From NCBI GenBank assembly GCA_942490825.1, contig CALNYG010000013.1, positions 55,311 to 119,310 on the forward strand: 64,000 nucleotides of DNA, written 5' to 3'. How positions within the stretch are numbered: the first letter of the stretch is position 1; every line of letters starts with the position of its first letter. The position numbers and the translations under genes were made by a program. Of the stretch, positions 3,062-62,803 are shown in pieces. The notes beneath the pieces were generated by a model. The model was not told the DNA's origin. It was given only the letters and a program-made list of their open reading frames with translations, and searched no databases. This DNA is from Candidatus Moraniibacteriota bacterium. GTDB lineage: Bacteria; Patescibacteriota; Minisyncoccia; Moranbacterales; GCA-2747515.

Positions 3062-4063
3062 ATGATGACAATTTTAATTTTTACCCTGTTGATTTTTTTA
3101 TCAGCTTTTTTTTCAAGTAGTGAGACAGCTTTCTTTTCATTATCTCCAGCTAAGATTCATTCGATGCGGAAAGAAAGTATGCGGTGTGCTAGTTTGGTTG
3201 ATAAATTAAAAAGTGATCCTCATAGATTGCTTATTACTATATTAATTGGAAATAATATAGTAAATCTTTTCACAGCTTCCTATGCAACTGTTGTAGCAAC
3301 TAACTTTTTTGATTCATCTGCTTTGGGAATTTCTACTGGACTTACAACTTTAATCATTTTGATTTTTGGTGAGATAATTCCAAAGTCATTTGCTTATGCT
3401 AAAAATATTTTATTTGTGCAAATAAGTGCATGGCCAATTTATTTTTGTAGTATAGTATTTTTTCCAATAGCTTGGTTTTTAAATAAAATAAGTAAAATTT
3501 TTCAAAAGATTGCGGGTATTAAAGATGAAGGAGAAAGAGTCACGGTGGATGAAGTTATGTTTATGAGTAAGATAGGTACGGAGCAGGGTGAAATAGATAA
3601 GTATGAACATGAGATGATTGAAAATGTATTTGGTTTTGATAAAATTTCAGCTGGAGATATAATGACAAAATGGGATGATGTAGTAGTTCTCTCAGGCGTT
3701 GTTCCTGTTGAACAAATTGCCCACTTTGTTTCTCAAGAGAGTCATTCACGATATCCAGTGTATGATGGTAAAAATGAGAAAAATATTATAGGGTATGTTC
3801 ATTTGAAGCATGTTATGAAGGCTTTAAATTCTGATGAAAGAGATAGGTCACTTGCTGATTTTGCAATTCCTATAAAGAAAGTGTCAATTGATATGACTAT
3901 TGAGCGTATTTTCAAAATAATGTTAAAAAATAAGTCACATGCATTCTTAATTTATGAAGGCAGTCAGGAAAATCTAGTTGGATTATTGACACTAGAAAAT
4001 GTTATTGAAGAAATTTTAGGTGAAATTAAAGATGAGACAGATCATTGGAAAGTTAAAAAATAG
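3062..4063 (+). CDS. CNNM/DUF21 + CBS-pair membrane protein (TlyC/CorC-like transporter family)
   Basis: N-terminal TM helices containing the GEIIPKS motif, followed by two CBS-like repeats. No CorC_HlyC C-terminal domain is apparent. Confidence 0.75.
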   Translation: MMTILIFTLLIFLSAFFSSSETAFFSLSPAKIHSMRKESMRCASLVDKLKSDPHRLLITILIGNNIVNLFTASYATVVATNFFDSSALGISTGLTTLIILIFGEIIPKSFAYAKNILFVQISAWPIYFCSIVFFPIAWFLNKISKIFQKIAGIKDEGERVTVDEVMFMSKIGTEQGEIDKYEHEMIENVFGFDKISAGDIMTKWDDVVVLSGVVPVEQIAHFVSQESHSRYPVYDGKNEKNIIGYVHLKHVMKALNSDERDRSLADFAIPIKKVSIDMTIERIFKIMLKNKSHAFLIYEGSQENLVGLLTLENVIEEILGEIKDETDHWKVKK

Positions 4064-4217
4064 AGCAATAATTTTATTTTATTATGGAGGAAAAGAATAA
4101 TTTTTAGGGTTTAAATTTGAAATAAATTAAGATTTTTTTGCTTAAAAATATTTTTTGTTATATAATTGAAGTATAAAATTAAAATAAAAAATAATAATTA
4201 AAAACAAAAATAAAAAT

Positions 4218-4661
4218 ATGAAAATGGATGATGAATTAGTTAAAAAAATAATTGTTGTTACTCTAGCGACATTTTCTTTTCTGGCAGTTACTTTTATATT
4301 CTATAGCCAAGACAAGCGTTTGGAAGAGGTTAGTTTGCAGGAGGTTATAACTAAAGATAAAGATTCTGATGGAAGAAAAGTTAAAAAATCCATTGAAGAT
4401 TTTTCTGGAAGGAAATATGTTTGTGATAACGGACAATTTATTTTTATAGATATCTATACTGGTAACGGAGGATATAAAGCTGATGTTGCCGTGGCTAATG
4501 CTGACGGTCATTATGGTATGGCATATTTAACTGAAGTTATTGGTGTTGGTAAAGATAAAAAATTTGAAGATAGTTATAATAATCAGTTGTTGTTGTCAGA
4601 TGATAATGCAAAAGTTTATGTAAATGATGTTTTAATTGCTGAAGGCTGTATTAAGAGATAA
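4218..4661 (+). CDS. hypothetical membrane-anchored protein
   Basis: ORF with one N-terminal TM segment (IIVVTLATFSFLAVTFIFY). No family recognised. Confidence 0.4.
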   Translation: MKMDDELVKKIIVVTLATFSFLAVTFIFYSQDKRLEEVSLQEVITKDKDSDGRKVKKSIEDFSGRKYVCDNGQFIFIDIYTGNGGYKADVAVANADGHYGMAYLTEVIGVGKDKKFEDSYNNQLLLSDDNAKVYVNDVLIAEGCIKR

Positions 4662-4796
4662 TTTTTAGTTAGTATTAAATATATTTTTATAATCAACGGT
4701 AGAATATAAGTTCATCTTATTGAGTTTTTAAAAATAAGTTTAGAGTTTATTTGTATAATCCTAATCTGTCTAACTAAATTTAGTTTTTTGTGAGAT

Positions 4797-4824
4797 TTGA
4801 CAAAAAAATAATTATTGATATAGT
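4797..4824 (+). promoter_or_regulatory. sigma70-type promoter candidate upstream of greA
   Basis: TTGACA (4797-4802), 16-nt spacer, TATAGT (4819-4824). Confidence 0.55.
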
Positions 4825-4880
4825 GAGTATCTAACATACTAGATAGTGTGTTTTTAATTTATTAAAAATAAAGTAAATTT

Positions 4881-5934: not shown

Positions 5935-6324
5935 ATGATTCGTATAGCTGGTACAAATATTCCAGATGAAAAATGTATAGAGATTTCTCTTACTTATATT
6001 TTTGGAGTTGGTCTTTCGACTAGTCAGAAAGTTCTTAGTGGATTAGGGATTGACCCTACGATTAGGACTAAAGATATTTCAAAAGTTGATGCTGACAAAA
6101 TACGTGATATGATTGAGAAGAATTATCGAATAGAAGGAGAATTAAGGCATGAAAGAAAAATGAATGTTCGTCGATTAAAAGAAATTGGATGTTATAGAGG
6201 TTTACGTCATCAAGTTGGGTTGCCATCTAGAGGACAAAGAACTAAAACTAACAATAGAACGGTTAGAGGTAATAAGCGAGTAACTGCAGGTAGTGGTAAA
6301 GCAGGATCTGCTTCTAAGACTTAA
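5935..6324 (+). CDS. rpsM: 30S ribosomal protein S13
   Basis: MIRIAGTNIPDEKCIEISLTYIFGVG...YRGLRHQVGLPSRGQRTKTN, and gene order. Confidence 0.92.
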   Translation: MIRIAGTNIPDEKCIEISLTYIFGVGLSTSQKVLSGLGIDPTIRTKDISKVDADKIRDMIEKNYRIEGELRHERKMNVRRLKEIGCYRGLRHQVGLPSRGQRTKTNNRTVRGNKRVTAGSGKAGSASKT

Positions 6325-8213: not shown

Positions 8214-8609
8214 ATGAAACATTGTAAATCAGGTAGACAATTTGGAAGAGTAGCATCTCAAAGAAAAGCTCTTTTAAGCTCAATGTTAACGAGTTTGATT
8301 GTTCACGAAAAAATTGAAACAACCGAAGCAAAAGCTAAAGAATTAAAAAGTGTGTTTGATAGAATTATCACTAGAGCTAAAAGGGCGGATGGAAAAATGG
8401 AACTGGTAAGGAAGTTAGAGGATAAATTGCCTGTTGTAGCTATTGATAAAGTTAAAGATGAATTGTTGGATAGAATGAGTGGTAGAAAAAGTGGTTATAC
8501 TCGTGTTATAAAAATGTCTCCTAGAAAAAGCGATGGCGCTCGTAGAGCTATTATAGAATTTGTTGATAAAAAAGAAAAAGAGACAAATTCTAAAAATGAT
8601 AGTGAATAG
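8214..8609 (+). CDS. rplQ: 50S ribosomal protein L17
   Basis: MKHCKSGRQFGRVASQRKALLSSMLTSLIVHEKIETTEAKAKEL, and gene order. Confidence 0.9.
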   Translation: MKHCKSGRQFGRVASQRKALLSSMLTSLIVHEKIETTEAKAKELKSVFDRIITRAKRADGKMELVRKLEDKLPVVAIDKVKDELLDRMSGRKSGYTRVIKMSPRKSDGARRAIIEFVDKKEKETNSKNDSE

Positions 8610-9134: not shown

Positions 9135-9599
9135 ATGGCAACTAAGAAAACTCAAGTTAAAGAAAAAAAGAATAAAGCTAATGTAAATTTTAAAGGTCAG
9201 TACTTTTGTGCTGTGGGTAGACGTAAGACTGCTGTTGCTCAGGTTAGAGTGTATTTAAATGATGAAGCAGAAGCTAATAATAGTCAATTTATAGTTAATG
9301 AAAGAGAAATGTCAAATTATTTTCCATTAGCATCTCAGCAGGATATTTTCTTGAGTCCGTTGAAAGTTGCTGGTTTTGATGGCAAATGTGCAGTTTCAGT
9401 TTTAGTTAAAGGTGGTGGTTTAACTGGTCAAGTTGATGCTATTAAATTAGGAATCGCTAGAGCTTTAGTTAAATTTGATGAAGAGCTTAGAGCTGTATTG
9501 AAAGCTGAGGGATTTTTGACTAGGGATGCTCGTAAAGTTGAGCGTAAAAAGCCAGGTCTTCGAAAGGCTCGTCGTTCTCCACAATGGTCAAAACGATAA
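9135..9599 (+). CDS. rpsI: 30S ribosomal protein S9
   Basis: GRRKTAVAQVRV...GGGLTGQVDAIKLGIARAL...RKKPGLRKARRSPQWSKR. ATG 9135 is preferred over the track's TTG at 9114. Confidence 0.9.
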   Translation: MATKKTQVKEKKNKANVNFKGQYFCAVGRRKTAVAQVRVYLNDEAEANNSQFIVNEREMSNYFPLASQQDIFLSPLKVAGFDGKCAVSVLVKGGGLTGQVDAIKLGIARALVKFDEELRAVLKAEGFLTRDARKVERKKPGLRKARRSPQWSKR

Positions 9600-16460: not shown

Positions 16461-16465
16461 AAAAC

Positions 16466-16550
16466 ATGCTCAAAAAAATCCTAAAAAACATTCAGTTACA
16501 ACAAATTCCGACCACTCCAAAAAGAAATCATCAACAATATTTTTAACAAG
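16466..16550 (+). pseudogene. decayed duplicate of the recQ 5' end
   Basis: ATGCTCAAAAAAATCCTAAAAAACATTCAGTTACAACAAATTCCGACCACTCCAAAAAGAAATCATCAACAAT aligns with recQ 19093-19170 at roughly 80-85% identity with a 2-nt gap. It encodes FSYNKFRPLQKEIINN versus FGYNKFRPLQKEIIDN. Confidence 0.8.
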
Positions 16551-16574: not shown

Positions 16575-17507
16575 TCATTCAATAAAACCCTTTTCTTTAA
16601 GTAGCTCTATTAGTTTCTCATTAAATATCACTACACCATCTTGATTCATATGATTAGAATCAAAAAAATAAGTCGAATCATCAAGATCCAAAATATTATT
16701 AAAATTAATATATTCCCCATAAGAACTCATTTTCTCATCAAAATATTCAGGATTAATATATGAATTATAATAATCATGCGTCATAGGAGCTTGTATTAAT
16801 ATAAAATCTATATTATTTGATTTAAATATATGTAAAATATCTTCAAATGCATTGATTTGATTTTTATTAATCTCAATCTCTTTTTCTTCAATCTCCTCAA
16901 GTTCATAATGCATAATTTCTTTTTCAACAAAACCTCCTGAGATATAGGTGTCATTAATTTTAATTTTTTTCTCAATGAATTTATCATTTAAATTAAAAAA
17001 ATCTTTATAAAATCCAAAAATAGCAGTATTGAGTGTCTTCATATGTTTTATTTTAGCCAACATTTTTAATGTCTCTATATCATTCTTATCATTTGCAATT
17101 AAATCCAATGATGATTCAACTCCTTCACTTGTAAAAGTATTTGGAAAAACTTCAAATATCACTAATTTTGGATTCAACTCCTTTAAATATCTATTGATTA
17201 GAACTTTAGTTTGGATAGGAGTTTGACTGCTTGATCCCAAATTAAAAACTTTCAATCCCTTTTCTTCATAGAGTCTGACATCGAATCCACGATATGAATG
17301 AGATGAGCCTAAAAATAAAATATCAACGTCTTTGAAATCTTTTACTTCATTCATTCTAGAATACATATGTCCATAGGATCCTATTCTATAATTTAAGTTA
17401 GGTGTAAAATTTTGAGGAAACAGTGTTCCCCAAACGCAAGTTAATATTACATATACGAAAAATGAGAATAAAATAAATTTAATAAGTGAAAGTATAAAAT
17501 ATTTCAT
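16575..17507 (-). CDS. DltD/AlgX-like (SGNH-type) accessory protein of an MBOAT O-acyltransferase
   Basis: N-terminal TM anchor, DILFLGSSHSYRGF block, and a position directly downstream of the MBOAT gene with a 3-nt gap. Confidence 0.5.
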   Translation of the reverse strand: MKYFILSLIKFILFSFFVYVILTCVWGTLFPQNFTPNLNYRIGSYGHMYSRMNEVKDFKDVDILFLGSSHSYRGFDVRLYEEKGLKVFNLGSSSQTPIQTKVLINRYLKELNPKLVIFEVFPNTFTSEGVESSLDLIANDKNDIETLKMLAKIKHMKTLNTAIFGFYKDFFNLNDKFIEKKIKINDTYISGGFVEKEIMHYELEEIEEKEIEINKNQINAFEDILHIFKSNNIDFILIQAPMTHDYYNSYINPEYFDEKMSSYGEYINFNNILDLDDSTYFFDSNHMNQDGVVIFNEKLIELLKEKGFIE

Positions 17508-17510
17508 AAG

Positions 17511-18962
17511 TTAAAATTGAAAATAAATAAAAGGGGTTTCGATTGTTTGCATATACATACCAATAGTAAAGATTATCAATGAATAAAAAGCCCAGCGAAG
17601 AGATCTTCTACAACTCAGACCTAATTTAGCAATTGCATGTTCTTGTTCTCTGCCGAGCCATTCAATAATCAAAAAAATAAATATTAAAAAAGATAAGGTT
17701 ATTACTCCATTCATATCTTTAAGTGCAGGGATTGTAAATAGAGAAAACGAAAATATTCTTGAAATGTAATTTATTGCATGACTAACATTTTCAGCTCTGA
17801 AAAATATCCAAGCAAAAATAGTTAGACCAAAAGTTAATGCCATAAGGAAAAATTCCTTTATGCTTGGTAAATATTTTCCTTTTGCCACAACTTCTAAATT
17901 AGACCTGTTTTTATTAGCTAACAGAAGTGGTAAAAAATAAATTGCATTTAATGCTCCCCAAATTATAAATGTCCAATTAGCACCATGCCAAAATCCACTG
18001 ACTATAAAAATAATAAAAATATTTCTAATTTTTTTCCAAATACTACCACGACTACCACCTAATGGAATATAGAGATAATCTCGAAACCATGTGGAAAGTG
18101 AGATGTGCCAGCGTCTCCAAAACTCTGCGATGTCTCTAGAAAAATAGGGAAATGCAAAGTTTTGCATTAAATTAAAGCCAAAAAGTCTCGATGTACCAAT
18201 TGCTATATCTGAGTAACCTGAAAAATCTCCATAAATTTGAAAGGCGAAAAAAAATGCTCCCAGCACTAAAGTACTACCTGAATAATCACTTGAATTATTG
18301 AAAATTAGATTTGCATATTCTGCACAGTTATCCGCTATCACAACTTTCTTAAATAAGCCCCAAAGTATTTGACGCATTCCATCAATAGATTTTGAATAGC
18401 TAAAAATTCTTTTTTTATGAAATTGAGGGAGTAAATTAGAAGCTCTTTCAATTGGTCCTGCAACTAATTGAGGAAAAAAGCTTACAAAAGCAGAAAATGC
18501 AATAAAATCTTTCGTTGGTTTTATTTTCTTTTTATATACATCTATTGTGTAGCTTAATGTTTGAAATGTGTAGAAACTTATACCTACAGGTAATATTATA
18601 TTTAAAGTATTTGCTTTTATCTCTGTTCCAAATAATGAGAATGCTGTAATAAAATTTTCTAGAAAAAAATTGTAATATTTAAAAAATCCTAAAAATCCAA
18701 GATTAACAAGAATGCTTATCCAAAATAATATTTTTCTTCTTTTGGCATTTTCTTCTTTCGAGAGTTTAATTCCAATAGAATAATCAATGACTGTGCTAAA
18801 AAATATCAATGCTAAAAATTTATAATCCCACCATCCATAAAATAAGTAACTTGTTGCAAAAAGTAAAAGGTTTTGTAACCTTAAGTTTTTGTTTGTTACA
18901 AACCAGTAAAGTATAAAAACTATAGGTAGGAATATTGCAAAATCAATAGAATTAAAAAGCAT
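17511..18962 (-). CDS. MBOAT family O-acyltransferase (AlgI/DltB-like)
   Basis: Multi-pass membrane protein with RRWHISLSTWFRDYLYIPLGGSRG, the conserved His motif of AlgI/DltB. Confidence 0.85.
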   Translation of the reverse strand: MLFNSIDFAIFLPIVFILYWFVTNKNLRLQNLLLFATSYLFYGWWDYKFLALIFFSTVIDYSIGIKLSKEENAKRRKILFWISILVNLGFLGFFKYYNFFLENFITAFSLFGTEIKANTLNIILPVGISFYTFQTLSYTIDVYKKKIKPTKDFIAFSAFVSFFPQLVAGPIERASNLLPQFHKKRIFSYSKSIDGMRQILWGLFKKVVIADNCAEYANLIFNNSSDYSGSTLVLGAFFFAFQIYGDFSGYSDIAIGTSRLFGFNLMQNFAFPYFSRDIAEFWRRWHISLSTWFRDYLYIPLGGSRGSIWKKIRNIFIIFIVSGFWHGANWTFIIWGALNAIYFLPLLLANKNRSNLEVVAKGKYLPSIKEFFLMALTFGLTIFAWIFFRAENVSHAINYISRIFSFSLFTIPALKDMNGVITLSFLIFIFLIIEWLGREQEHAIAKLGLSCRRSLRWAFYSLIIFTIGMYMQTIETPFIYFQF

Positions 18963-19092
18963 TGAATTTAAAATTTATAGGTTAATAGGTAAAGTTTAGA
19001 ATTAAGTCAAGATTTGTAGATTGTGTAAAATTAAGATATATTAAAAGTACATTTAGTGATTATATCATGAAATTTGTAATAATAAATAAATC

Positions 19093-21306
19093 ATGCCACA
19101 AAAAATTCTAAAAAAAACATTCGGTTACAACAAATTCCGACCGCTTCAAAAAGAAATAATAGACAATGTCTTAAATAAAAAAGACACCGTCGTATTAATG
19201 CCAACAGGAGGCGGAAAGTCACTTTGCTATCAAATTCCTGCAATCCACCTTCAAGGATTAACAGTTGTCGTTTCACCTTTGATTTCCTTAATGAAAGATC
19301 AAGTTGATGCTTTGCGACAAAATGGAGTTGAGGCTGCTTTTTGGAATTCGACACTTTCGCTTGAACAACAAAATAAATTACAAGAAAAAATACATAATAA
19401 AGAATTAAATCTTCTTTACATAGCACCAGAAAGATTTGGTGCAAGTGGATTTTTACAATTTTTACAAAATCTTAAAGACGACATTTCACTTTTCGCTATA
19501 GATGAGGCACATTGTATTTCTGCATGGGGACACGATTTTCGTCCAGATTATCGAAATTTACAAGTTCTAAAAAATGATTTTCCGAAAATTCCCATTATTG
19601 CACTTACAGCCACAGCGACGCCGAAAGTTTTACAAGATATAATTTCCAACTTAAATTTAAATAAAGATTTTAAAGTTTTTCAAGGATCCTTTGATCGAAA
19701 AAATTTATTTTATGAAGTGAAAAGAAAACAAAAATCTTTTGATCAAATTTGTTATTTTTTAAATAAAAGAAAAAAAGAATCGGGAATTATTTATTGTTTC
19801 TCACGGAAAAAAGTAGACGCAATGGCTCAAAAGTTAAAACATAAAGGCTTTTCAGTTTTGCCGTACCATGCAGGATTAAGTCCGCAAATTAGAGCAAAAA
19901 ATCAAGATAAATTTATTAAAGATGAAGTGCAAATTATTGTGGCAACGATTGCTTTTGGGATGGGAATTGATAAACCAGATGTGCGTTTTGTAATTCATGA
20001 TAGTTTGCCAAAAAATATTGAAAGTTACTATCAAGAAACTGGGCGAGCGGGACGTGATGGTGATCCAGCACATTGTCTTTTATTTTTTTCTTATGGCGAC
20101 AAGCGAAATATTGAATTTTTCTTTAATGATATTTCGGATGAGTCTGAAAGAAAAAATGCTGAAGAAAAGTTGCAAAAAATGATTGATTTTTGTGAACAGA
20201 AAAGATGTCGTCGGCAAATGCTTTTAAATTATTTTGATGAAGATTTTTCAATTTCACCAGATAGAAGTGACGATGAGGCAAAAAAATGTTGTGATTTTTG
20301 CGTGAATCCTCCCGATGTTTTTGATGCGACGGAAATTTCTTTTAAAATATTTTCAGCGATTGCACGGACTAATCAACGTTTTGGCATGATGACAATTATT
20401 GATATTTTAAAAGGTAGTAAAAATCAAAAAATGGTGGGACGAGGTTTTGAAAAATTGTCAGTTTTTGGAATTGTTACAGATTTTTCTAAAGATGCGATGA
20501 GTGAAATTATTCGACAGTTAATTGATCGAAATTTTTTGCGATTAACAAAAGATGAATTTCCTGTTTTGAAATTAACACAACAGGCAGCTGAAGCAATTTC
20601 ACATAGAAAAATGATTAGTCTTTTTTCAATTAAAAAAGATTTTATTGAATCAAGTACAAATGTTCAGGAAGAATTTGAGTTTGATGAGGAACTTTTTGAG
20701 GACTTACGTATTTTACGAACAAGAATTGCTCAAGAGAAAAATCTTCCACCTTATGTTATTTTTCATGATAAGGCTTTGCGTCAGATTGCAGCAGTTCTAC
20801 CAACTTCGAAAGATGATTTAGAAAATATTTCAGGTATTGGTTCGCGAAAAATTAATGATTATGGTGATGGTGTGATTGAGGTGGTGCAGGATTTTTGTGA
20901 AAGGAAAAAAGTTGATAAAGATGTTCATAAAGATAATATTGATTTTGATGAAATTAATAAGACGGAAGTTAAAATTGCACCACCGAATGGTCGCTCTGAG
21001 GATATTTTAAATTTATTGAAACAAGGTAAGTCTGTTCTGGAGATGACTAATATTTTTGGAATTAAGGAAGGGACAATTTTTGCTCATATTGAACGTTTAA
21101 TTTTTTCAGGTGATATTGAGGGAATTGATTATTTTGTTGATAAAGAAACTCAGATTGTGATCGAGAATGCTTTTGATGGTAATTTTAAACAGAATCTTTC
21201 TGTTATTAAAGAGAGATTGGAGGACGATTTTAGTTATGATGAGATTAGGTTGGTGAGAGTGATTGGATTGAGAAATAAGGAAAAGAAAGTTATAATTAAG
21301 ATATAA
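19093..21306 (+). CDS. recQ: ATP-dependent DNA helicase RecQ
   Basis: FGYNKFRPLQKEII, MPTGGGKSLCYQIPA, DEAHCISAWGHDFRPDY, a Zn-binding C-rich region, an HRDC-like region (LRILRTRIAQEKNLPPYVIFHDKALRQIA) and an extra C-terminal domain. Confidence 0.9.
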   Translation: MPQKILKKTFGYNKFRPLQKEIIDNVLNKKDTVVLMPTGGGKSLCYQIPAIHLQGLTVVVSPLISLMKDQVDALRQNGVEAAFWNSTLSLEQQNKLQEKIHNKELNLLYIAPERFGASGFLQFLQNLKDDISLFAIDEAHCISAWGHDFRPDYRNLQVLKNDFPKIPIIALTATATPKVLQDIISNLNLNKDFKVFQGSFDRKNLFYEVKRKQKSFDQICYFLNKRKKESGIIYCFSRKKVDAMAQKLKHKGFSVLPYHAGLSPQIRAKNQDKFIKDEVQIIVATIAFGMGIDKPDVRFVIHDSLPKNIESYYQETGRAGRDGDPAHCLLFFSYGDKRNIEFFFNDISDESERKNAEEKLQKMIDFCEQKRCRRQMLLNYFDEDFSISPDRSDDEAKKCCDFCVNPPDVFDATEISFKIFSAIARTNQRFGMMTIIDILKGSKNQKMVGRGFEKLSVFGIVTDFSKDAMSEIIRQLIDRNFLRLTKDEFPVLKLTQQAAEAISHRKMISLFSIKKDFIESSTNVQEEFEFDEELFEDLRILRTRIAQEKNLPPYVIFHDKALRQIAAVLPTSKDDLENISGIGSRKINDYGDGVIEVVQDFCERKKVDKDVHKDNIDFDEINKTEVKIAPPNGRSEDILNLLKQGKSVLEMTNIFGIKEGTIFAHIERLIFSGDIEGIDYFVDKETQIVIENAFDGNFKQNLSVIKERLEDDFSYDEIRLVRVIGLRNKEKKVIIKI

Positions 21307-21325: not shown

Positions 21326-21892
21326 ATGAAAAATTTATTAATAGTAATTACGGGATTTCCAGGAACTGGAAAAACAACTTTTGGTAAAAAAATATCGGAA
21401 GATTTTAACATGCCATTTATTTCAAAAGATGATTTTAAAGAGATTATGTTTGATGGATTTGGATACAAAGATCGTAATTTATCTAAAAAATTTGGTATTG
21501 TTAGTTACGATATTCTTTATCATGTTGCAGAAGCTAATTTAAGAAGTAATAATTCTGTTATCATTGAAACAAATTTTGATCCTAAATTTGCAAATAAGAG
21601 AATTTTAAATTTAAAGAAAAAATATGATTTTGAAATTTTGCAAATAAGATTTTATACAGAAGGCAATGTTCTTTTTGAAAGATTTAAAAAAAGAGCTTTT
21701 TCAGAAAATCGTCATTCAGGTCATTGTGATAGTGAATGTTTAGAGGAATGGCGACCAATACTATTAAAAGGCATGATAGAAGCTTTGGATATAAATGGAG
21801 ATATTGTTGATGTTGATACAACAGATTTTGATAAAATTAATTATAAAGAAGTTTTTGATGTTATTAGTAATAAATTAGGTAATATTAATTAA
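21326..21892 (+). CDS. P-loop kinase-like ATP-binding protein (AAA_33-type)
   Basis: Walker A motif ITGFPGTGKTTFGKKI. 188 aa. Confidence 0.55.
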   Translation: MKNLLIVITGFPGTGKTTFGKKISEDFNMPFISKDDFKEIMFDGFGYKDRNLSKKFGIVSYDILYHVAEANLRSNNSVIIETNFDPKFANKRILNLKKKYDFEILQIRFYTEGNVLFERFKKRAFSENRHSGHCDSECLEEWRPILLKGMIEALDINGDIVDVDTTDFDKINYKEVFDVISNKLGNIN

Positions 21893-21902
21893 ATAAAAAT
21901 TT

Positions 21903-22205
21903 ATGAACAAAAAACAACCGCAGTCAAACAATCAAATAAAACTTGCAGATAATATCGCAGGAGCAGAATATGCAAATATCGCACAAATCATGCATAATAA
22001 AGAAGAATTTCGTTTAATGTTTGCACATATTTTTGAACCGACTGGAAAAGTAGTTGGCAAAGTAACAGTTACGCCCGGGCATTTCAAGAGGATGGTAAAA
22101 GCGATGCAGGAAAATTTAAAAAAGTACGAAGAGCAGTTTGGTGAAATTGAAAAATCAGAAGGTCCTAGTTCTGGAGGGATCGGGTTTGCGGATAGAAAAG
22201 AGTAG
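21903..22205 (+). CDS. DUF3467 family protein
   Basis: GAEYANIAQIMHNKEEFRLMFAHIF...VTVTPGHFKRMVKAMQENLKKYEEQFGEI matches my recollection of the DUF3467 pattern. Confidence 0.65.
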   Translation: MNKKQPQSNNQIKLADNIAGAEYANIAQIMHNKEEFRLMFAHIFEPTGKVVGKVTVTPGHFKRMVKAMQENLKKYEEQFGEIEKSEGPSSGGIGFADRKE

Positions 22206-22211
22206 TTTTTT
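22137..22211 (+). repeat. 75-bp direct repeat, copy 1 (functional 3' end of the DUF3467 gene)
   Basis: TTTGGTGAAATTGAAAAATCAGAAGGTCCTAGTTCTGGAGGGATCGGGTTTGCGGATAGAAAAGAGTAGTTTTTT. About 90% identical to 22541-22615. Confidence 0.85.
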
Positions 22212-22233
22212 ATTAAAAATTAAAAACAATAAA

Positions 22234-22461
22234 ATGAAAAAATGTTCAAATTGTAAAAAGGAATTAGAACCCATATTTATAATCGATGGAACTAACACGT
22301 CAAGCGTTCGAAATGGATTTGTTTTTACTAAGGAAAAACCAACGAAATCATGGACTGGAAGTGTTAATAATGAAGCTGGTGTTGTTCGTGCTTTCTTTTG
22401 TTCTGAATGTAAAAAAGTTGAGTTATATGCGATTGAGGGAGAAAAAGATTTATTTGTATAA
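22234..22461 (+). CDS. small zinc-ribbon protein (75 aa)
   Basis: MKKCSNCKKE...FFCSECKK gives two CxxC pairs. ATG 22234 is preferred over the track's TTG at 22138, which overlaps the previous gene. Confidence 0.5.
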   Translation: MKKCSNCKKELEPIFIIDGTNTSSVRNGFVFTKEKPTKSWTGSVNNEAGVVRAFFCSECKKVELYAIEGEKDLFV

Positions 22462-22540
22462 AATAAATTTAAAATTTTTAAAGTTCAGTTTAAGTTTATT
22501 CTTAAATTGGGCTTTTATTTTTATTTCAATTAATAATGAT

Positions 22541-22615
22541 TTTGGTGAAATTGAAAAGTCAGAAAGTCCTATCTCGGGAGGGATCGGGTTTGCGGATAGA
22601 AAAGAATAGTTTTTT
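22541..22615 (+). pseudogene. 75-bp direct repeat, copy 2 (orphan DUF3467 3' end fragment)
   Basis: Encodes FGEIEKSESPISGGIGFADRKE-stop with no upstream gene body. Same stop-codon context and T6 run as copy 1. Confidence 0.8.
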
Positions 22616-22640
22616 GTGGTACACTAGGTTGTATTAATTT

Positions 22641-23564
22641 ATGAATCGAATTTTTATGAAAAATGTTATCATAACAATCTTAGTATTTTTAGTTTTGATT
22701 TCGAGCGGGATAAGTTTATATTTTTTCAAAGAATTAAATTCTAATAAAATAGAAACGAATGAAAAAGATATTCCTACTATTGAAGATAAAAAAGTAGAGG
22801 AAGAAGTTTTGGATCAGATTTCAGGTAAAGTTAAAAAGACAGGCGAAAAAGAAAAAATTTCAAATCAGAATTTAAAACCTGAAGATGATTTGGCTGTTTA
22901 TAAAAATGAAAAATATAATTATAGTTTTAAATATCCGAAAGATTGGTATCTTTATGAATATTCTGATTATAGAGAAAAATGTCCAACTAAAAGTGATCTT
23001 TTTGGAGTTGAGAAATCTGTTATTTTAAGTAAGAGTGAATTAAAAGGATGCGAGATCGTTGAGGATGGAGAATATAATAGTGCTTTTGGAGGAAATATTT
23101 ATTTTCATGCAATGGACAAGGGAGGAATGGTTAATATTGTTGAAAATCGCTTAAGTAGTTATAATGAAGAATACAAGGAGGCGTTTATTGGAAATGGTAT
23201 AAGGTCAACAAAGTCTGTATTTGAGGGCTCTCCAAGATATACTTACGACTTTAGAGTGGCAAGATTTAATTATAGTATTATAATTAAAAAAGATAATAAA
23301 GAAAATATCGATTCAGAATTGATGAGTTTTTTAGATAGTATAGTTATAGAAGATTATTATTGTGAGACAGATAGTGATTGTGTTATAAAAGAAGAAAAAG
23401 ATACTTGTCTTGAATGTGATAAAAAATTTGTTTGTGTTAATGAGAATTCAGAAATTAATAAGGTAAAAGCTTATTGTGCTAGTCCTAAAAATTATGAAAC
23501 ATGTATAACTTCAATCGTTCCGACAGGGTGTCAGTGTGTTAATAATAGGTGTGAAGATAATTAA
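22641..23564 (+). CDS. hypothetical membrane-anchored or secreted protein with a Cys-rich C-terminus
   Basis: N-terminal TM/signal segment (VIITILVFLVLISSG). C-terminal 70 aa carry about 10 Cys. Confidence 0.4.
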   Translation: MNRIFMKNVIITILVFLVLISSGISLYFFKELNSNKIETNEKDIPTIEDKKVEEEVLDQISGKVKKTGEKEKISNQNLKPEDDLAVYKNEKYNYSFKYPKDWYLYEYSDYREKCPTKSDLFGVEKSVILSKSELKGCEIVEDGEYNSAFGGNIYFHAMDKGGMVNIVENRLSSYNEEYKEAFIGNGIRSTKSVFEGSPRYTYDFRVARFNYSIIIKKDNKENIDSELMSFLDSIVIEDYYCETDSDCVIKEEKDTCLECDKKFVCVNENSEINKVKAYCASPKNYETCITSIVPTGCQCVNNRCEDN

Positions 23565-26224: not shown

Positions 26225-27430
26225 ATGGGAAGCTATGCATCATTTAAGATAAAAGATTATGAAGTTCTTTGGATGAAAAGCTACATTAGTCCACTTGTGG
26301 CAAGTCTTTTTATAGAAAGTGATAGGATTGAAAAAGATGATGGTAATGACAAATATAGGTATATCTATTATCAAACAAATGTTGAAACTATAAAAAAGAG
26401 ATTGGATATTATGGGATTTAATCTTGAAACATTAAAATGTGCATTTCATAAATCTAAAAGGTGTAAGTTGGATAATTTAAATGAGAAAAATAATGTAAAT
26501 TTTTTAGATAAATTTACTTTTGAAGAGTATTTAATTGCTTTAAAAAAAATTTATGACAGTAAGATAGATTTTTTCTTAAGTGAAAATAATTTATCGCATG
26601 AGGAAGTAGAAAGGATTAAGGAAGATGATCCATACGTTAAATACGTATTAGAAGAATGTGAAAGTTTTGGTGATTTAAGTATCGAATGTGTATTAAGAGG
26701 ATTTTTAGAAAAAATAGAAGATGACACCAGTGTTTCGGTAGATGTATCAGCGTTAATAGATGCGGGTTATTATGAAGAAAAAGATAAGATAGTTGAAAAA
26801 GAATCAGATATAAATAAAACAATTATTTTCACAGAAGGAAAGTATGATACATCAGTTATAAAACAGAGTATGAAATTATTGTATCCGCAATATGTGAAAT
26901 ATTTTTCATTTTTAGATATCGATTTAGCTAATCTTGAATTAGGATCAACTAGAGTAGTTACATATTTAAAATCTTTTATTTCGGCAGGAATTACAAATAG
27001 GGTTATAGTTTTATTTGATAATGATGTGGAGGGGATTTTTTGTAAAGAAGAGTTATTAAAATTAAAAAAAATTCCGAACAACTTTTGTATTCAAACGTAT
27101 CCCGATATAGATATTGCAAAAAATTATCCGACAAGGGGTCCTGCTGGGATAGAAAAAATAGATATTAATGGATCGGCTTGTAGCATTGAATTATATCTTT
27201 GTGAGAATGTTTTAAGAGAAAATAATGATTTAATTCCAATACAGTGGAAGTCTTTTAATGAAAGGATGGAAAAGTACCAAGGCTCTTTTTCTAGTAAAAA
27301 TAAGAGGCTGATACAGAAAAAGTATAATAATATTTTAAAGGATAAAAAAAATATAGAAAAGTATGACTTTAATAATATGAAGACTTTATTAGAAAGTATT
27401 TTTAGTGCCTTTGATGATAAGGTTTTATGA
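26225..27430 (+). CDS. Toprim-domain protein with an uncharacterised N-terminal domain (HEPN/Toprim-associated-like); putative defence nuclease
   Basis: TIIFTEGKYDTSVI (conserved Glu) and VLFDNDVEG (DxD) about 65 aa apart fit a Toprim fold. The N-terminus MGSYASFKIKDYEVLWMKSY...LFIESDR resembles, from memory, the N-terminal domain annotated as HEPN/Toprim-associated. Starts 3 nt after the pheT stop. Confidence 0.5.
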   Translation: MGSYASFKIKDYEVLWMKSYISPLVASLFIESDRIEKDDGNDKYRYIYYQTNVETIKKRLDIMGFNLETLKCAFHKSKRCKLDNLNEKNNVNFLDKFTFEEYLIALKKIYDSKIDFFLSENNLSHEEVERIKEDDPYVKYVLEECESFGDLSIECVLRGFLEKIEDDTSVSVDVSALIDAGYYEEKDKIVEKESDINKTIIFTEGKYDTSVIKQSMKLLYPQYVKYFSFLDIDLANLELGSTRVVTYLKSFISAGITNRVIVLFDNDVEGIFCKEELLKLKKIPNNFCIQTYPDIDIAKNYPTRGPAGIEKIDINGSACSIELYLCENVLRENNDLIPIQWKSFNERMEKYQGSFSSKNKRLIQKKYNNILKDKKNIEKYDFNNMKTLLESIFSAFDDKVL

Positions 27431-27529
27431 TAATTATAAAGCCAATTTGTAATAGCTACATTTTGAAATACGCAAATCAAACATTCTACAAGTAAAAATA
27501 AATTAATTTTGAGTAATAACTGAAAAATG

Positions 27530-27564
27530 TTAAAATATGTATAGGTAACCTATACATATTTTAA
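27530..27564. promoter_or_regulatory. 35-bp perfect palindrome (17-bp arms, 1-nt centre) 22 nt upstream of the R-M gene
   Basis: TTAAAATATGTATAGGT-A-ACCTATACATATTTTAA, verified base by base. Confidence 0.6.
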
Positions 27565-27585
27565 TTTTCCAAAATATAATTTATT

Positions 27586-30039
27586 ATGACTAATTTAAGA
27601 AAAAATGAAGCAAAAGGAGATATAAATTTATTTAATTTTATCAAAGAAAATAGAATTTACAGTAAAGATTGGACTGTTCAAAAGCAAAATAATAAATTTA
27701 TTCAAGAAATTTTAGATAAAACTAGTAAAAAGGGTAATGGAAATAAAGGTTATCCAGATTTGATTTACGTTAATGAAAATAAAAAATTATTAATTTTAAT
27801 TGAGAATAAAGATCAAATAAAAAGTCATGTTTCTAAAAATGAAGATAATCCTGTGGATTTTGCTGTTGATGGAATAAAGCATTATTTATCTTTTTTTACT
27901 GATGATAAATTATTGGAAGAGAAAGAAACCATTAAAAAATATTTTAAAGATTGGAAGATAATCGGAATTGCTTTTTCGGGAGATATTAATGATGAATATA
28001 ATCATAGACTAGATACATATGTTATTGAAGGTAATAATGTTAAAAATATTAACAAAAATGAAATTTTAGACGAAGAGGATTACTTGGCTTTTTTTGAGAA
28101 CGTCGATTTAGAAAAGATAGCTAATGATATTTCAAAATCTTCAAGTGAGATCAATACTTTGTTAAGAAATTTAGACTCACAGAAAAGACCTGTGCTTTTG
28201 AGTGCTTTAATGGTTTGTTTGTTTGAAAAGCCTACTTTTAGAAACTCTTTTAGAGAAAATTATTCAAATTATGATACTGATTATATTATTTCTAATATAC
28301 CACTTACAGTTGAAAAAATTCTTAAAAGTGAGAATATAACTCAGGAAAAAATAAATGTTCTTATAAATGAGTTAGCTTTCATGAAGACAGATAAGGATTT
28401 AAATGACACTGATATTTTAAAAGATATTTTAGTTGAATTGCAAGATAATGTTATTCCTCTTTTTGATAAAAAAACAAATTATGATATTATTGGAAAATTT
28501 TATGAGGAATTTTTAAGATATGCAGGAATTACAAATGTTAAAAAAGGTATTGTATTAACTCCAAATCACATTGCTACGTTATTTACAGAATTAATTGATA
28601 TAAAAACTGATGATATTTTTTTTGATCCAGCTTGTGGGACGGGAGCTTTTTTGATTGCGGGAATGAATAAACTTATTGATAAAATCAATAATTCTAGTTT
28701 AGTTGATAAGCAAGATAGAATTAAGAATATAAAAAAGAAACAGCTTATCGGATTTGAAAAAAGTAGTACAATGTATTCTTTGGCAATTTCAAATATGCTT
28801 TTTCGAGGAGATGGAAAATCTCAAATTTTTAACGAAGACTTTTTTTCAGAAGAGTCTAAAAAAGTTTTGAAAAATTTAAAGCCTACAATTGGTTTTGTTA
28901 ACCCTCCATACAGTGGCAAAGATAACAAAAAAAATCCTACAAAAAAAGAAATTCAATTTTTGGAGTTAATGTTAGATAATTGTAGTAGATATGGAATTAT
29001 TATCGCTCCACTTTCGACTTTTTTTAAGGATGAAAATTACAGAAATAGGATTTTAACAAAACATACTTTGAAGTACATGATTAATATGCCAAGTGATTTG
29101 TTTCAACCAAATGCTTCAGCTCCTACAGCAATTGCAGTTTTTGAAACAAATGAACCTCATGGCGATAATAAAGTGGTATTTTATGATTTGAAAGACGATG
29201 GTTTTGTTTTGTCTAAAAATAAAGGAAGAACTGATGTTTTTAACAAATGGGGCAGTGTAAAAAAAGAATTGTTAAAAAAAATAAAAAATCCATATGAAAA
29301 TGAAGATTTATTAAAATTGGTATATAAAAAAATAACAGGGGACGATGAGTGGATTATTCAAGCTCATTCAAAAAATAATTATAATGATCTAAATAACGTA
29401 AATTTTGATAAAAATTTAAAAAAGTTTTTAATATTTTATTTTAGACATCGTCTAAATTTAATTAATAAAAAAATTGATGAAATTACTTTAGTGGATATTT
29501 TTCGTAAAAATGGATTATCTAGTAATTCAATTTTAGATAATCATCTCGAATTAAATACAGACACATGGAAAGAATTTAGTTTGACAGATGTTTTTTCTCT
29601 TTCGTTAGGTAAGCCAATTCATAAAATACAAATATTTGAATCAGTTGATGATGGAGTTACTCCGTATATAACAAGAACTGCAAAAAACAATGGGACAGAG
29701 TTATTTTTGGATTCAAGTAATTTAGGAGATAAGGTGTCTAAAGGTAATTGCATTACTATTGGGGCTGAAGGCTTGAAATCATTCTATCAAAAAGAGGATT
29801 TTTTGACGGGTAATAAAATTAACATATTAAGAAATAAAGAAATTAATTTACACAGGGCTTTGTTTATTTGTACAGTTTTAGATTTTATAATAGAAGAAAA
29901 ATATACTTATGGAAGAGCTGTTGTAAAAAACAGATTGGAGAATGAAAAAATAAAACTTCCAGTAGATAAAAATGGAAATCCAGATTGGCAGTTTATGGAA
30001 GATTATATAAAATCATTGCCTTATTCTTCAAGTTTATAA
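27586..30039 (+). CDS. single-chain restriction-modification-specificity enzyme (Type IIG-like: PD-(D/E)xK nuclease + N6-adenine methyltransferase + HsdS-like TRD)
   Basis: N-terminus GYPDLIY...LLILIENKD (PD...ExK). FDPACGTGAFL (SAM motif I) precedes VNPPYSG (motif IV). The C-terminal ~180 aa (KEFSLTDVFSLSLGKPI...) resemble one type I S-subunit target-recognition domain. Confidence 0.7.
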   Translation: MTNLRKNEAKGDINLFNFIKENRIYSKDWTVQKQNNKFIQEILDKTSKKGNGNKGYPDLIYVNENKKLLILIENKDQIKSHVSKNEDNPVDFAVDGIKHYLSFFTDDKLLEEKETIKKYFKDWKIIGIAFSGDINDEYNHRLDTYVIEGNNVKNINKNEILDEEDYLAFFENVDLEKIANDISKSSSEINTLLRNLDSQKRPVLLSALMVCLFEKPTFRNSFRENYSNYDTDYIISNIPLTVEKILKSENITQEKINVLINELAFMKTDKDLNDTDILKDILVELQDNVIPLFDKKTNYDIIGKFYEEFLRYAGITNVKKGIVLTPNHIATLFTELIDIKTDDIFFDPACGTGAFLIAGMNKLIDKINNSSLVDKQDRIKNIKKKQLIGFEKSSTMYSLAISNMLFRGDGKSQIFNEDFFSEESKKVLKNLKPTIGFVNPPYSGKDNKKNPTKKEIQFLELMLDNCSRYGIIIAPLSTFFKDENYRNRILTKHTLKYMINMPSDLFQPNASAPTAIAVFETNEPHGDNKVVFYDLKDDGFVLSKNKGRTDVFNKWGSVKKELLKKIKNPYENEDLLKLVYKKITGDDEWIIQAHSKNNYNDLNNVNFDKNLKKFLIFYFRHRLNLINKKIDEITLVDIFRKNGLSSNSILDNHLELNTDTWKEFSLTDVFSLSLGKPIHKIQIFESVDDGVTPYITRTAKNNGTELFLDSSNLGDKVSKGNCITIGAEGLKSFYQKEDFLTGNKINILRNKEINLHRALFICTVLDFIIEEKYTYGRAVVKNRLENEKIKLPVDKNGNPDWQFMEDYIKSLPYSSSL

Positions 30040-61371: not shown

Positions 61372-61465
61372 GTTTGTATTTTTTGTTAGTGTCGTTATTT
61401 TGATGCGAAAAAACTCAGTAAGTTTTTTTATTATTTTAGTTTTAAATTTTAATGATATTTTTTGG

Positions 61466-61521
61466 GGGATTCTTCACTTCATAAATTTATCTATGTTAAA
61501 TTTATTACGTTCAGAATGACA
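61466..61521 (+). repeat. ~56-nt intergenic element, copy A
   Basis: GGGATTCTTCACTTCATAA...TTCAGAATGACA. Its termini are identical to the reverse complement of 62644-62700. Confidence 0.75.
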
Positions 61522-61575: not shown

Positions 61576-62609
61576 ATGTTTCAATTTTACGGATTACCAT
61601 TCGTGATTTCTTTTTTTATTTCAATATCTTTTTGCTTTGTTTTAGTTTATTTTTTTAAAAAAAATAATTGTCAGAATGTTCGCGAAAGCGTAAGGCATAT
61701 TCATGACAATAAACAAATTTCGCGTTTCGGTGGAGCAACGATTATTTTTTCATTTGTTTTAATTTTATTTTTAAATAAAGATATAGTTTTTGATCATCTA
61801 ACTTTAGTAATGTTGATTGGGTTGGTGATAATTTTTATTTTAGGTGTGATTGATGATGTTTGGGAACTAAATTGGAAAATTCAACTTTTTTTTCAAATCA
61901 TAATTATTTTTTTGATTTTTCATTATGGTATCCAAATTGAATTTATTACAAATCCTTTTGGTGGGTTAATTCTATTTAATTCATTAGTTAGCTTTATTTT
62001 TACTTTAATTTGGATGTTAGTTATTATTAACATTGTTAATTGGAGTGATGGAGTAGATGGGTTAATGGGTGGAATTATATTTTTTGCTTCAATTGCTTTA
62101 TTTTTTCTTTCTTTGAGACCCGAAGTAAATCAACCTCCATTAGCTATTATTTCAATCGTATTGTCAGGAAGTATCTTAGGATTTTTAGTTTTAATTTTCC
62201 GCCAGCTAAAATTTTTGCAGGAACGGGAGGGTCTTTTTTTACTGGATTTTTAATTGCGATTTTAGCAATTTTTGCTGGAGCTAAAATTGGGACGACTCTC
62301 TTGGTTTTAATTGTACCACTGACAGATGCGTTATTTGTGGCTTGGCAACGGTGGAGAGAAGGAGTGTCTGTATTTGAGGCGGATACGAGGCATTTACATC
62401 ATCAATTACTTCAATTGGGCTGGTCGCAGAGAAAGATCGTTGTTTCTTATTATTTTATTACTGCTGTTGGTGTGGTCGTGGCACTTTCGACTAGTTCGGT
62501 TAATAAATTTTTTGCATTCGTTTTATTTTTTATGGCAGTTTTAATTTTTTGTTTTGTTGTGAATAGGGTAGTTGAAAAAATTGATAATAAATCAATAATA
62601 AATCAATAA
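61576..62609 (+). CDS. polyprenyl-phosphate N-acetylhexosamine-1-phosphate transferase (WecA/TagO/MraY superfamily), interrupted by a -1 frame change in a T4 run
   Basis: NIVNWSDGVDGLMGG in frame 1. From 62190, frame 0 reads FNFPPAKIFAGTGGSFFTGF...DTRHLHHQLL. Track ORFs 61576-62253 and 62301-62609 are the two parts, and the join is at T-run 62189-62192. Confidence 0.8.
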
Positions 62610-62643: not shown

Positions 62644-62700
62644 TGTCATTCTGAAAGAAATAATTTTTTATTTTATAAAAATTATGTAGTGAAGAATCCC
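62644..62700 (-). repeat. ~56-nt intergenic element, copy B (inverted)
   Basis: TGTCATTCTGAA...GTGAAGAATCCC. Confidence 0.75.
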
Positions 62701-62735
62701 AATAGGTTTTTCTGATATTTTTATTTTAAAGTTTT

Positions 62736-62803
62736 GGGATTCTCTGTGGGAGATTATTCACTTCATAAAATTTTTTACAAAAATCTTGTTACGTTTAGAA
62801 TAA
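62736..62803 (+). repeat. ~56-nt intergenic element, copy C (with a 13-nt internal insertion)
   Basis: GGGATTCT[CTGTGGGAGATTA]TTCACTTCATAAA...TTACGTTTAGAATAA. Forms a long imperfect inverted repeat with copy B. Confidence 0.65.

Follow-up and report, generated by a model that had tools for sequence, protein, structure and literature searches.

The stretch of DNA analysed here, 64,000 nucleotides in length and referred to throughout as the window, is AT-rich chromosomal DNA (30% GC) whose nearest public relatives are MAGs of Candidatus Moraniibacteriota (Moranbacteria). It contains a DUF3467 gene whose 3′ end is present twice, and the two copies of this gene end lie on either side of a short segment with one small gene. 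The ORF at 21903-22205 matches Pfam DUF3467 (PF11950) with E = 9e-21 and 74.1 bits, above the gathering cut-off of 25, and its orthologues in the related contigs L001 and L026-L033 are 89-92% identical at the amino acid level. The features of the locus are:

21903-22205, + strand: DUF3467 gene, 100 aa (Pfam PF11950), a conserved backbone gene with its 3′ end duplicated
22137-22211, + strand: repeat copy 1, the functional DUF3467 tail, consisting of the last 22 codons, the stop codon and T6
22212-22540, + strand: inserted segment, 329 bp, 25% GC, not present in any relative
22234-22461, + strand: zinc-ribbon ORF (CxxC...CxxC), 75 aa, the lone ORF of the insert
22480-22525, + strand: predicted intrinsic terminator of the inserted gene, a 15-pair hairpin followed by a T-rich tail (terminator scan)
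22541-22615, + strand: repeat copy 2, an orphan and decaying DUF3467 tail, joined to the ancestral downstream flank
22616-22640, + strand: ancestral intergenic region, with a homologue in L031 and L001 that directly follows the T-run of DUF3467
22641-23564, + strand: lipoprotein-like gene, 307 aa, the ancestral downstream neighbour of DUF3467, with homologues in L001/L026 and L031

The direct repeats (22137-22211 and 22541-22615) align without gaps over 75 nt, and 69 of the 75 bases are the same. The computed identity of 92% agrees with the value of about 90% obtained by hand alignment in a preliminary description of this DNA. In a self-BLAST the pair scored 109 bits (E = 4.5e-24), against a maximum of 31.9 bits in 500 shuffles. 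The same description had correctly taken copy 1 to be the DUF3467 end, stop codon and T6, with a small miscount (23 codons, where 22 are found), and had read copy 2 as a frame kept to the stop with no gene body; the frame of copy 2 does still read FGEIEKSESPISGGIGFADRKE-stop, and no gene body lies upstream of it. Self-BLAST revealed no further copy of the tail or of the insert within the window, where the only gene-end repeats are this pair and a second pair at recQ. The remaining repeats of the window consist of a GC-rich intergenic motif and AT-rich elements, and are not gene ends. Folding of the tails was no better than that of shuffled sequence, and thus gave no sign of a structured RNA.

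At an identity of at least 90%, the DUF3467 protein of the window clusters with six proteins, whose contigs represent five different contexts. The gene orders in the window and in relatives, with genes on the reverse strand marked (-), are:

Window, 5′ part: flavodoxin, 324-aa ORF, recQ remnant, DltD-like (-), MBOAT (-), recQ, AAA_33 kinase, DUF3467
Window, after DUF3467: zinc ribbon, orphan tail, lipoprotein-like gene, pheT, HEPN/Toprim and a type IIG restriction-modification enzyme
L001/L026-L028: IS30-like transposase end, recQ, GDSL lipase, DUF3467, 292-aa lipoprotein-like gene, pheT, two C5 methylases and NgoFVII
L029/L030: flavodoxin, MFS (-), recQ, DUF6714 (-), DUF3467, dCMP deaminase, pheT, methylase and HinP1I
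L031: DUF3467, then a 242-aa homologue of the window gene at 22641
L032: ParE, DUF3467, hairpin, reverse-strand gene

An empty site is preserved in L031. Positions 23-357 of this contig align with window positions 21880-22211, and positions 283-701 align with 22541-22957. The single tail of L031 thereby aligns with both window copies, in colinear order, and the sequence past its T-run is clearly homologous to the window sequence past copy 2. L001 and L026 also have an uninterrupted order, in which the DUF3467 tail is followed by the intergenic region and the lipoprotein gene. Neither the zinc-ribbon gene nor a second tail was found in the relatives listed above, and a DNA homologue of the insert (22212-22540) was present in none of the fetched loci. 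It follows that the zinc-ribbon unit is an insertion specific to this lineage; as the preliminary description had proposed, it is bracketed by a diverged duplicate of the adjacent gene end. The alignment with the empty site also gives the polarity of the event, since it identifies copy 2 as the resident tail left on the old flank. On this flank, the lipoprotein-like gene has 54% amino acid identity to the 292-aa gene of L001/L026 and 42% to the L031 gene, and its 5′ part has about 81% nucleotide identity to L031. The motif TGGTACACT (22617-22625) resembles an extended -10 element and may be a candidate promoter ahead of this gene.

Comparison of the two copies with the tails of relatives shows where the changes have occurred. 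Copy 1 matches the DUF3467 tails of relatives at 84-91%. Six positions differ between the copies, and four to five of these changes are private to copy 2 (A18G, G25A, G32T, T36G and, in part, T33C). Two of them are radical: a Gly to Ser change at the EGP motif, which no relative has altered, and a Ser to Ile change. On the copy 1 side the sole difference is the G at position 66, which is common to L031, and no change is clearly private. Since its private changes include the invariant glycine, copy 2 is decaying, and to judge from its sequence it behaves as an untranslated remnant. An ORF at 22286-22609 would translate copy 2; it was rejected as spurious, since it runs through the terminator and shares sequence with the zinc-ribbon ORF in a different frame. 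At position 45 both copies have ATC and every relative has ATT. The copies are therefore each other's closest relatives, and derive from one lineage or population. The insertion event is not recent, yet it is later than the split from the sampled relatives. The longest run without a mismatch between the copies is 29 nt (22173-22201), with mismatches on either side. The mismatch at position 66 was considered as proof of a Campbell crossover in this 29-nt core, and was dropped because L031 has G there too.

As had been described, the 329 bp between the copies carry one 75-aa CxxC...CxxC protein, seen as the ORF at 22234-22461. The AT-rich hairpin at 22480-22515 (fold z-score -3.3) forms a convincing intrinsic terminator, and the insert, which ends in a terminator of its own, is a complete transcription unit. 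Among 5.8 billion clusters, a word-indexed search returned only the zinc-ribbon protein itself, and no relative of more than 50% identity was found among approximately 15 billion proteins. An exhaustive HMMER search recovered 16 homologues of 71-102 aa with 35-46% identity, which keep both CxxC pairs together with several Gly, Ala and Val positions. An AlphaFold model built on the alignment of these homologues is all-beta, with a pLDDT of 92, and no PDB fold matched it at E < 0.1. Against Pfam DUF6487 (PF20097) the ORF scored 19.7 bits (E = 1e-3), under the gathering cut-off of 24. The remote homologues with conserved cysteines, together with the confident AlphaFold model, indicate that the zinc-ribbon ORF is a real gene, encoding a rare small protein. 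The three homologues with readable contigs lie in DNA of 66-69% GC, among unrelated neighbours and with no DUF3467 nearby. Thus the suggestion that the zinc-ribbon gene might travel with DUF3467 tails is not borne out.

We searched for mobile elements that could account for the insertion. A Pfam scan of 40 window ORFs detected no recombinase or transposase, only a sub-threshold rve_3 fragment at 384-977, in agreement with the earlier reading that no recombinase is present. No integrase, excisionase or mobility gene was found in the DUF3467 insert, in the recQ insert, in the insert of a further locus (L010, see below) or in the slots of relatives. Terminal inverted repeats are absent from the insert, which has only low-complexity A/T inverted matches. 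With no such repeats, no transposase nearby and a duplication of 75 nt, a transposon, IS or MITE was rejected; the duplication is far longer than any transposon target-site duplication known to us. When core motifs were inspected by eye, no attC-like site was seen in the insert, in which the AT-rich terminator is the sole hairpin. Like an integron cassette, the insert is a single small promoterless-looking ORF in a unit of a few hundred bp within a variable array. It differs from cassettes in having no attC palindrome (GTTRRRY core), attI or IntI, and cassettes do not duplicate the end of a neighbouring gene. No Rfam family matched between 13 and 31 kb. Neither viral contigs nor JGI metagenome contigs gave any match to the DUF3467 tail pattern, the zinc-ribbon protein had no relative in viral contigs, and PHROG and PADLOC matches were negligible. 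A phage or viral origin was rejected, as both the tail pattern and the zinc-ribbon protein are missing from viral contigs.

A second gene-end duplication, at recQ, had also been reported in this window. It is real, and lies 3-6 kb away as a mirror image of the DUF3467 case that involves the recQ 5′ end:

16461-16549, + strand: decayed recQ 5′ remnant, with the ATG kept and a frameshifting indel, 5 nt past the stop of the 324-aa ORF
16575-18962, - strand: companion cargo, a DltD/DUF1574-like gene and an MBOAT O-acyltransferase gene of Bacteroidota type (Pfam)
19088-19178, + strand: functional recQ 5′ end, partner of the remnant (recQ gene 19093-21306)

The remnant is 81% identical to 19088-19178 over 91 nt, and scored 86 bits against a shuffle maximum of 29. 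Unexpectedly, the MBOAT protein has 76-80% amino acid identity to Bacteroidota proteins. A contig recognised as Bacteroidota by a Por_Secre_tail neighbour (L037) carries the matching gene pair, and the MBOAT coding sequences are 77.6% identical in nucleotides over the whole length. No Moranbacteria locus with MBOAT as the neighbour of recQ was found.

Both duplications lie in a region that is highly variable between its conserved genes. The backbone flavodoxin-recQ-DUF3467-pheT has 78-87% nucleotide conservation, and every slot between backbone genes contains different genes in the window, L026, L029, L031 and L032. Nucleotide homology between the window and relatives is limited to backbone genes, and ends within a few to about 35 nt of the ends of recQ and DUF3467; at pheT it reaches about 190 nt upstream. 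No remnants of the slot genes of relatives were detected in the window. In L032 and L033 the slot after DUF3467 begins immediately past the stop codon; in the window it begins where the T-run ends, and in L029 about 10 nt later. Within recQ, the first 1200 nt or so are closer to L026, and the last 500 nt or so are 91-95% identical to L029 as against 68-80% to L026. Homologous exchange inside backbone genes is therefore directly visible in the recQ mosaic.

Orphan gene ends were sought at 33 other DUF3467 loci (about 290 kb). No orphan tail was present at 32 of them. The exception, L010, is from a Moraniibacteriota MAG, in which the last nine or so codons and the stop of DUF3467 recur on the same strand, 2.95 kb downstream, with 29 of 29 nt identical. 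The four intervening genes encode two paralogous membrane proteins, an MBL-fold protein and a C39-like peptidase; there is no integrase among them. Between DUF6714 and DUF3467, L029 contains a decayed duplicate of the promoter and 5′ region of recQ, which scored 56 bits where 500 shuffles reached at most 40. The repeats that flank DUF3467 in L008 were considered as a further case and rejected, being MITE-like palindromic elements and not gene ends.

On balance, the 404-bp unit, made up of a tail copy and the 329-bp insert, is probably the scar left when DNA was inserted, anchored by homology and independently of a recombinase, into a hypervariable slot of a Moranbacteria (CPR) chromosome. On the incoming fragment, the zinc-ribbon gene with its terminator would have come after a DUF3467 3′ end, and the donor would most likely have been a closely related cell that already had the zinc-ribbon gene after DUF3467. 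The fragment would have recombined with the resident DUF3467 gene through the sequence that they shared. This could have happened by either of two routes: the fragment may have been recircularised and integrated by a Campbell-type single crossover, or, by homology-facilitated illegitimate recombination (HFIR), a homologous crossover in DUF3467 may have been combined with an illegitimate joint 69 nt before the resident stop codon. Both routes would produce a gene body with an intact tail (copy 1), then the new gene, and then the displaced resident tail (copy 2) on the old flank. Copy 2 would from then on be untranslated and would decay, and the function of the anchor gene would be restored by the incoming gene copy.

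Homology-anchored insertion would also explain why gene ends are struck, because conserved backbone genes are the only homology anchors. As the spacers are merely 5-35 nt long and leave no neutral room for a second joint, a viable joint would come to lie inside the anchor gene. The apparent targeting of gene ends may thus follow from intergenic spacers of 5-35 nt together with selection for an intact backbone gene.

Structures of this kind have been obtained experimentally. When fragments with the lacZ 3′ end were introduced into E. coli, most integrants arose by a single crossover of recircularised molecules, and lacZ-end duplications of 109-950 bp were found around the insert (PMC3240628). 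The present locus resembles such Campbell insertion-duplications in that the insert lies between direct copies of the target's 3′ part, one copy is intact and the other truncated, and no dedicated recombinase is involved. It differs from them in that the duplication is 75 nt long, 8% diverged, natural and old enough to have decayed, and in that the circular intermediate and the entry route are proposals. With regard to entry, natural competence has been shown in cultivated Patescibacteria (PMC10633639). True HFIR was a minority class in the E. coli lacZ experiments, and is established in three naturally transformable species (PMC3240628). Displacement of 3′ ends by incoming modules has been proposed for Vibrio T6SS effector clusters and for Rhs C-termini (PMC5361080). 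The locus shares with HFIR and with T6SS effector-immunity and Rhs/CDI arrays an upstream anchor gene, an old end pushed downstream as an orphan and a mosaic array (PMC5361080, PMC3240628). Unlike the T6SS, Rhs and CDI systems it has no toxin-immunity logic; the displaced piece is 22 codons long and non-functional, and the cargo is one small zinc-ribbon gene.

Several observations count against homology anchoring. Classical HFIR usually results in insertion together with deletion of recipient DNA, whereas here there is a duplication, which would arise only by the circular variant or if the joint fell within the homologous stretch. The donor arrangement, with DUF3467 directly followed by the zinc ribbon and no duplicate, was not found in any locus, an absence that may reflect sampling. 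As the MBOAT cargo is of Bacteroidota origin, the recQ case would need a two-step history, with acquisition beside recQ in some Moranbacterium and later transfer between relatives. Finally, the similar duplication lengths (75 and about 89 nt) and the L010 orphan also fit a site-specific system.

In such a system, the two copies would be the attL and attR of a site-specific element that inserted at the DUF3467 3′ end with a replacement tail, and that later shed its integrase along with most of the cargo (a CIME or degraded island) or else is mobilised in trans by a recombinase from elsewhere in the genome. We regard this as unlikely, even though the layout of the locus invites it. The block of identity starts within the gene and stops shortly beyond its end, with the displaced gene fragment on the far side, and this is exactly the architecture of elements that integrate at gene 3′ ends; the partial tRNAs that flank tycheposons form a matching pattern (bioRxiv 10.1101/2020.12.28.424599). 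Tycheposons and other tRNA-targeting islands likewise have cargo bracketed by repeats of the target 3′ end, give rise through repeated use to variable islands next to a conserved gene, and leave orphan partial genes when degraded (bioRxiv 10.1101/2020.12.28.424599). The 29-nt identical core between mismatches, the independent L010 orphan separated from DUF3467 by four accessory genes, and a slot after DUF3467 that is different in every relative could all be read in the same way. The target here is, however, the protein-coding DUF3467 gene, no integrase or hallmark gene occurs in the examined inserts, the slots of relatives or the scanned window ORFs, and no free or viral form of the att site was found; neither viral nor JGI metagenome contigs contain the tail pattern, and viral contigs include no relative of the zinc-ribbon gene. 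The slot contents of L029 and L001 differ without any orphan tails, which indicates that slots usually change by replacement and not by att-flanked integration. The slot boundaries also vary between L032/L033, the window and L029.

A one-step event in situ, in which foreign DNA was joined at a staggered break or by template switching (MMBIR-like) and 75 nt were copied a second time, appears rather improbable, and a little more so than the att sites. The copies would then have been identical at birth, and copy 2 would have diverged since. This would account for a derived state that the copies share and relatives lack, and for the finding that nearly all differences are on the orphan copy. It needs no donor with the arrangement described above, for which no example is known, and the cargo of both window cases has its nearest known relatives outside the lineage. 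Against it, the functional recQ has about 30 nt upstream that resemble the sequence upstream of L029 recQ, and the remnant lies 5 nt past the stop of the 324-aa ORF. An incoming recQ 5′ end would account for these features better than a second copying in place, but the point is weak as the sequence is AT-rich. The literature searched gave no bacterial precedent for target duplications of 75-90 nt.

A further reading is that in CPR bacteria, or in Moranbacteria, conserved gene ends serve as landing pads for small recombinase-free cassettes. Recombination between the tail copies on either side would excise a circle of about 400 bp, comprising tail and cargo, and RecA or an unrecognised trans-acting enzyme could then re-insert it at the same gene end in a different cell. 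This reading would cover the DUF3467 tail and recQ head of the window, the L010 tail and the L029 copy of the recQ head, and if true would represent a minimal gene-cassette mobility system that leaves gene-end duplications of 30-110 nt. We consider this reading quite improbable.

An assembly artefact, in which two co-occurring strain variants were concatenated in a metagenome-assembled contig, is very improbable: the sequence comes from a MAG contig about 290 kb long and the divergence between the copies is typical of strain variants, but the six differences exclude the usual identical-copy artefact of collapsed or duplicated reads, the assembler would need read support across both junctions, the insert has no overlap with the tail to seed a false join, the recQ remnant with 81% identity and an indel is far beyond strain variation, and a similar orphan tail occurs in the independent assembly L010.

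The preliminary description had taken the two duplications as a hint of a common, possibly uncharacterised, mechanism that targets gene termini. Such a mechanism is not needed. No junction motif is common to the DUF3467 and recQ cases, slot boundaries differ, 32 of the 33 loci lack an orphan tail, and ordinary recombination gives such structures (PMC3240628, PMC5361080). There is no positive evidence for a new terminus-targeting mechanism, and the locus is a new and fairly ordinary instance of a known recombination scar in a gene-swapping hotspot.

The locus provides a clean, datable example of the entry of an accessory gene into the compact genomes of uncultivated CPR bacteria. CPR genomes are thought to have few classical mobile elements. 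Conserved housekeeping genes act as recombination anchors, the gene content of the slots between is exchanged, and now and then an orphan gene end is left as a record of the event. Such orphan ends could be mined genome-wide to measure how fast, in which direction and from which sources Patescibacteria gain genes, and these sources include uptake across phyla, as with the Bacteroidota-type MBOAT operon next door.

The last approximately nine codons and stop of DUF3467 are also repeated in another Moraniibacteriota MAG, at 6246-6277 and 9200-9231 of locus L010 (29/29 nt), with the second tail lying 2.95 kb downstream of the first. Four accessory genes are found between the two copies, encoding two paralogous membrane proteins, an MBL-fold protein and a C39-like peptidase, and no integrase is present among them.

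The recQ gene of the window (19093-21306) was compared with those of relatives sharing the same backbone genes. Its first ~1200 nt (the 5′ part) are nearer to relative L026; over the last ~500 nt, identity is 91-95% to relative L029 against 68-80% to L026. This recQ is a recombinant mosaic. In L029, the recQ promoter and first codons (1765-1875) are also present as a decayed copy (4509-4619; 72%), between DUF6714 and DUF3467 and downstream of recQ itself. This copy may have come along as a passenger, or it may be a promoter that was captured.

Several of the repeats found by self-BLAST of the window are due to a GC-rich motif, which occurs six times exactly, against 0.03 expected:

13397, 23652, 33078, 51405, 52378 and 56707, all + strand: exact copies of GTGCGGCGAGC

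The motif is frequently embedded in a longer AAAAGCCCGTGCGGCGAGCAC, and all six copies are intergenic, each with a + strand gene starting about 50-120 nt downstream. Relatives L001 and L026-L029 have conserved the one that precedes pheT. GTGCGGCGAGC is probably a regulatory or REP-like element specific to this lineage.

Other repeats were observed in the window and in two other contigs:

window 61407-61517, 62644-62700 and 62691-62801: AT-rich repeats containing GTCATTCTGA
L008 (a surveyed DUF3467 locus) 2509-2567, 3216-3322 and 4103-4210: MITE-like palindromic elements with termini TGTCATTCCGACCGAAGCGA ... TTCGGTCGGAATGACA
L037 (a Bacteroidota contig) 4686-4841 and 8389-8544: 156-nt direct repeats, 97% identical, bracketing an MBOAT/DUF1574/MamF cluster

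The AT-rich repeats, direct and inverted, lie on either side of a glycosyltransferase family 4 gene that appears to be divided over ORFs 61576-62253 and 62301-62609, through either a frameshift or decay into a pseudogene. The MITE-like elements are located after dnaK, after a GNAT gene and after DUF3467, and a GIY-YIG nuclease gene adjoins; dnaK directly precedes DUF3467 in most loci outside the window. Window ORF 384-977, adjoining a tRNA-Met/Met/Asp cluster (1107-1436), gave a sub-threshold match to rve_3 (integrase core) and is possibly a transposase remnant.

In the window, the slot after pheT (26225-30039) encodes a HEPN/Toprim protein together with a type IIG restriction-modification enzyme. 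Relatives have other methylase and restriction systems there, so the slot acts as one for defence genes.

Upstream of recQ, the window carries a gene pair:

16575-18962, - strand: MBOAT O-acyltransferase and DltD/DUF1574-like genes

The pair is close to Bacteroidota genes (76-80% amino acid and 77.6% nucleotide identity), and the same two-gene order is present in L037 (5001-7574). The pair looks like the result of gene transfer between phyla into a CPR chromosome, the donor possibly being a host or a neighbour.
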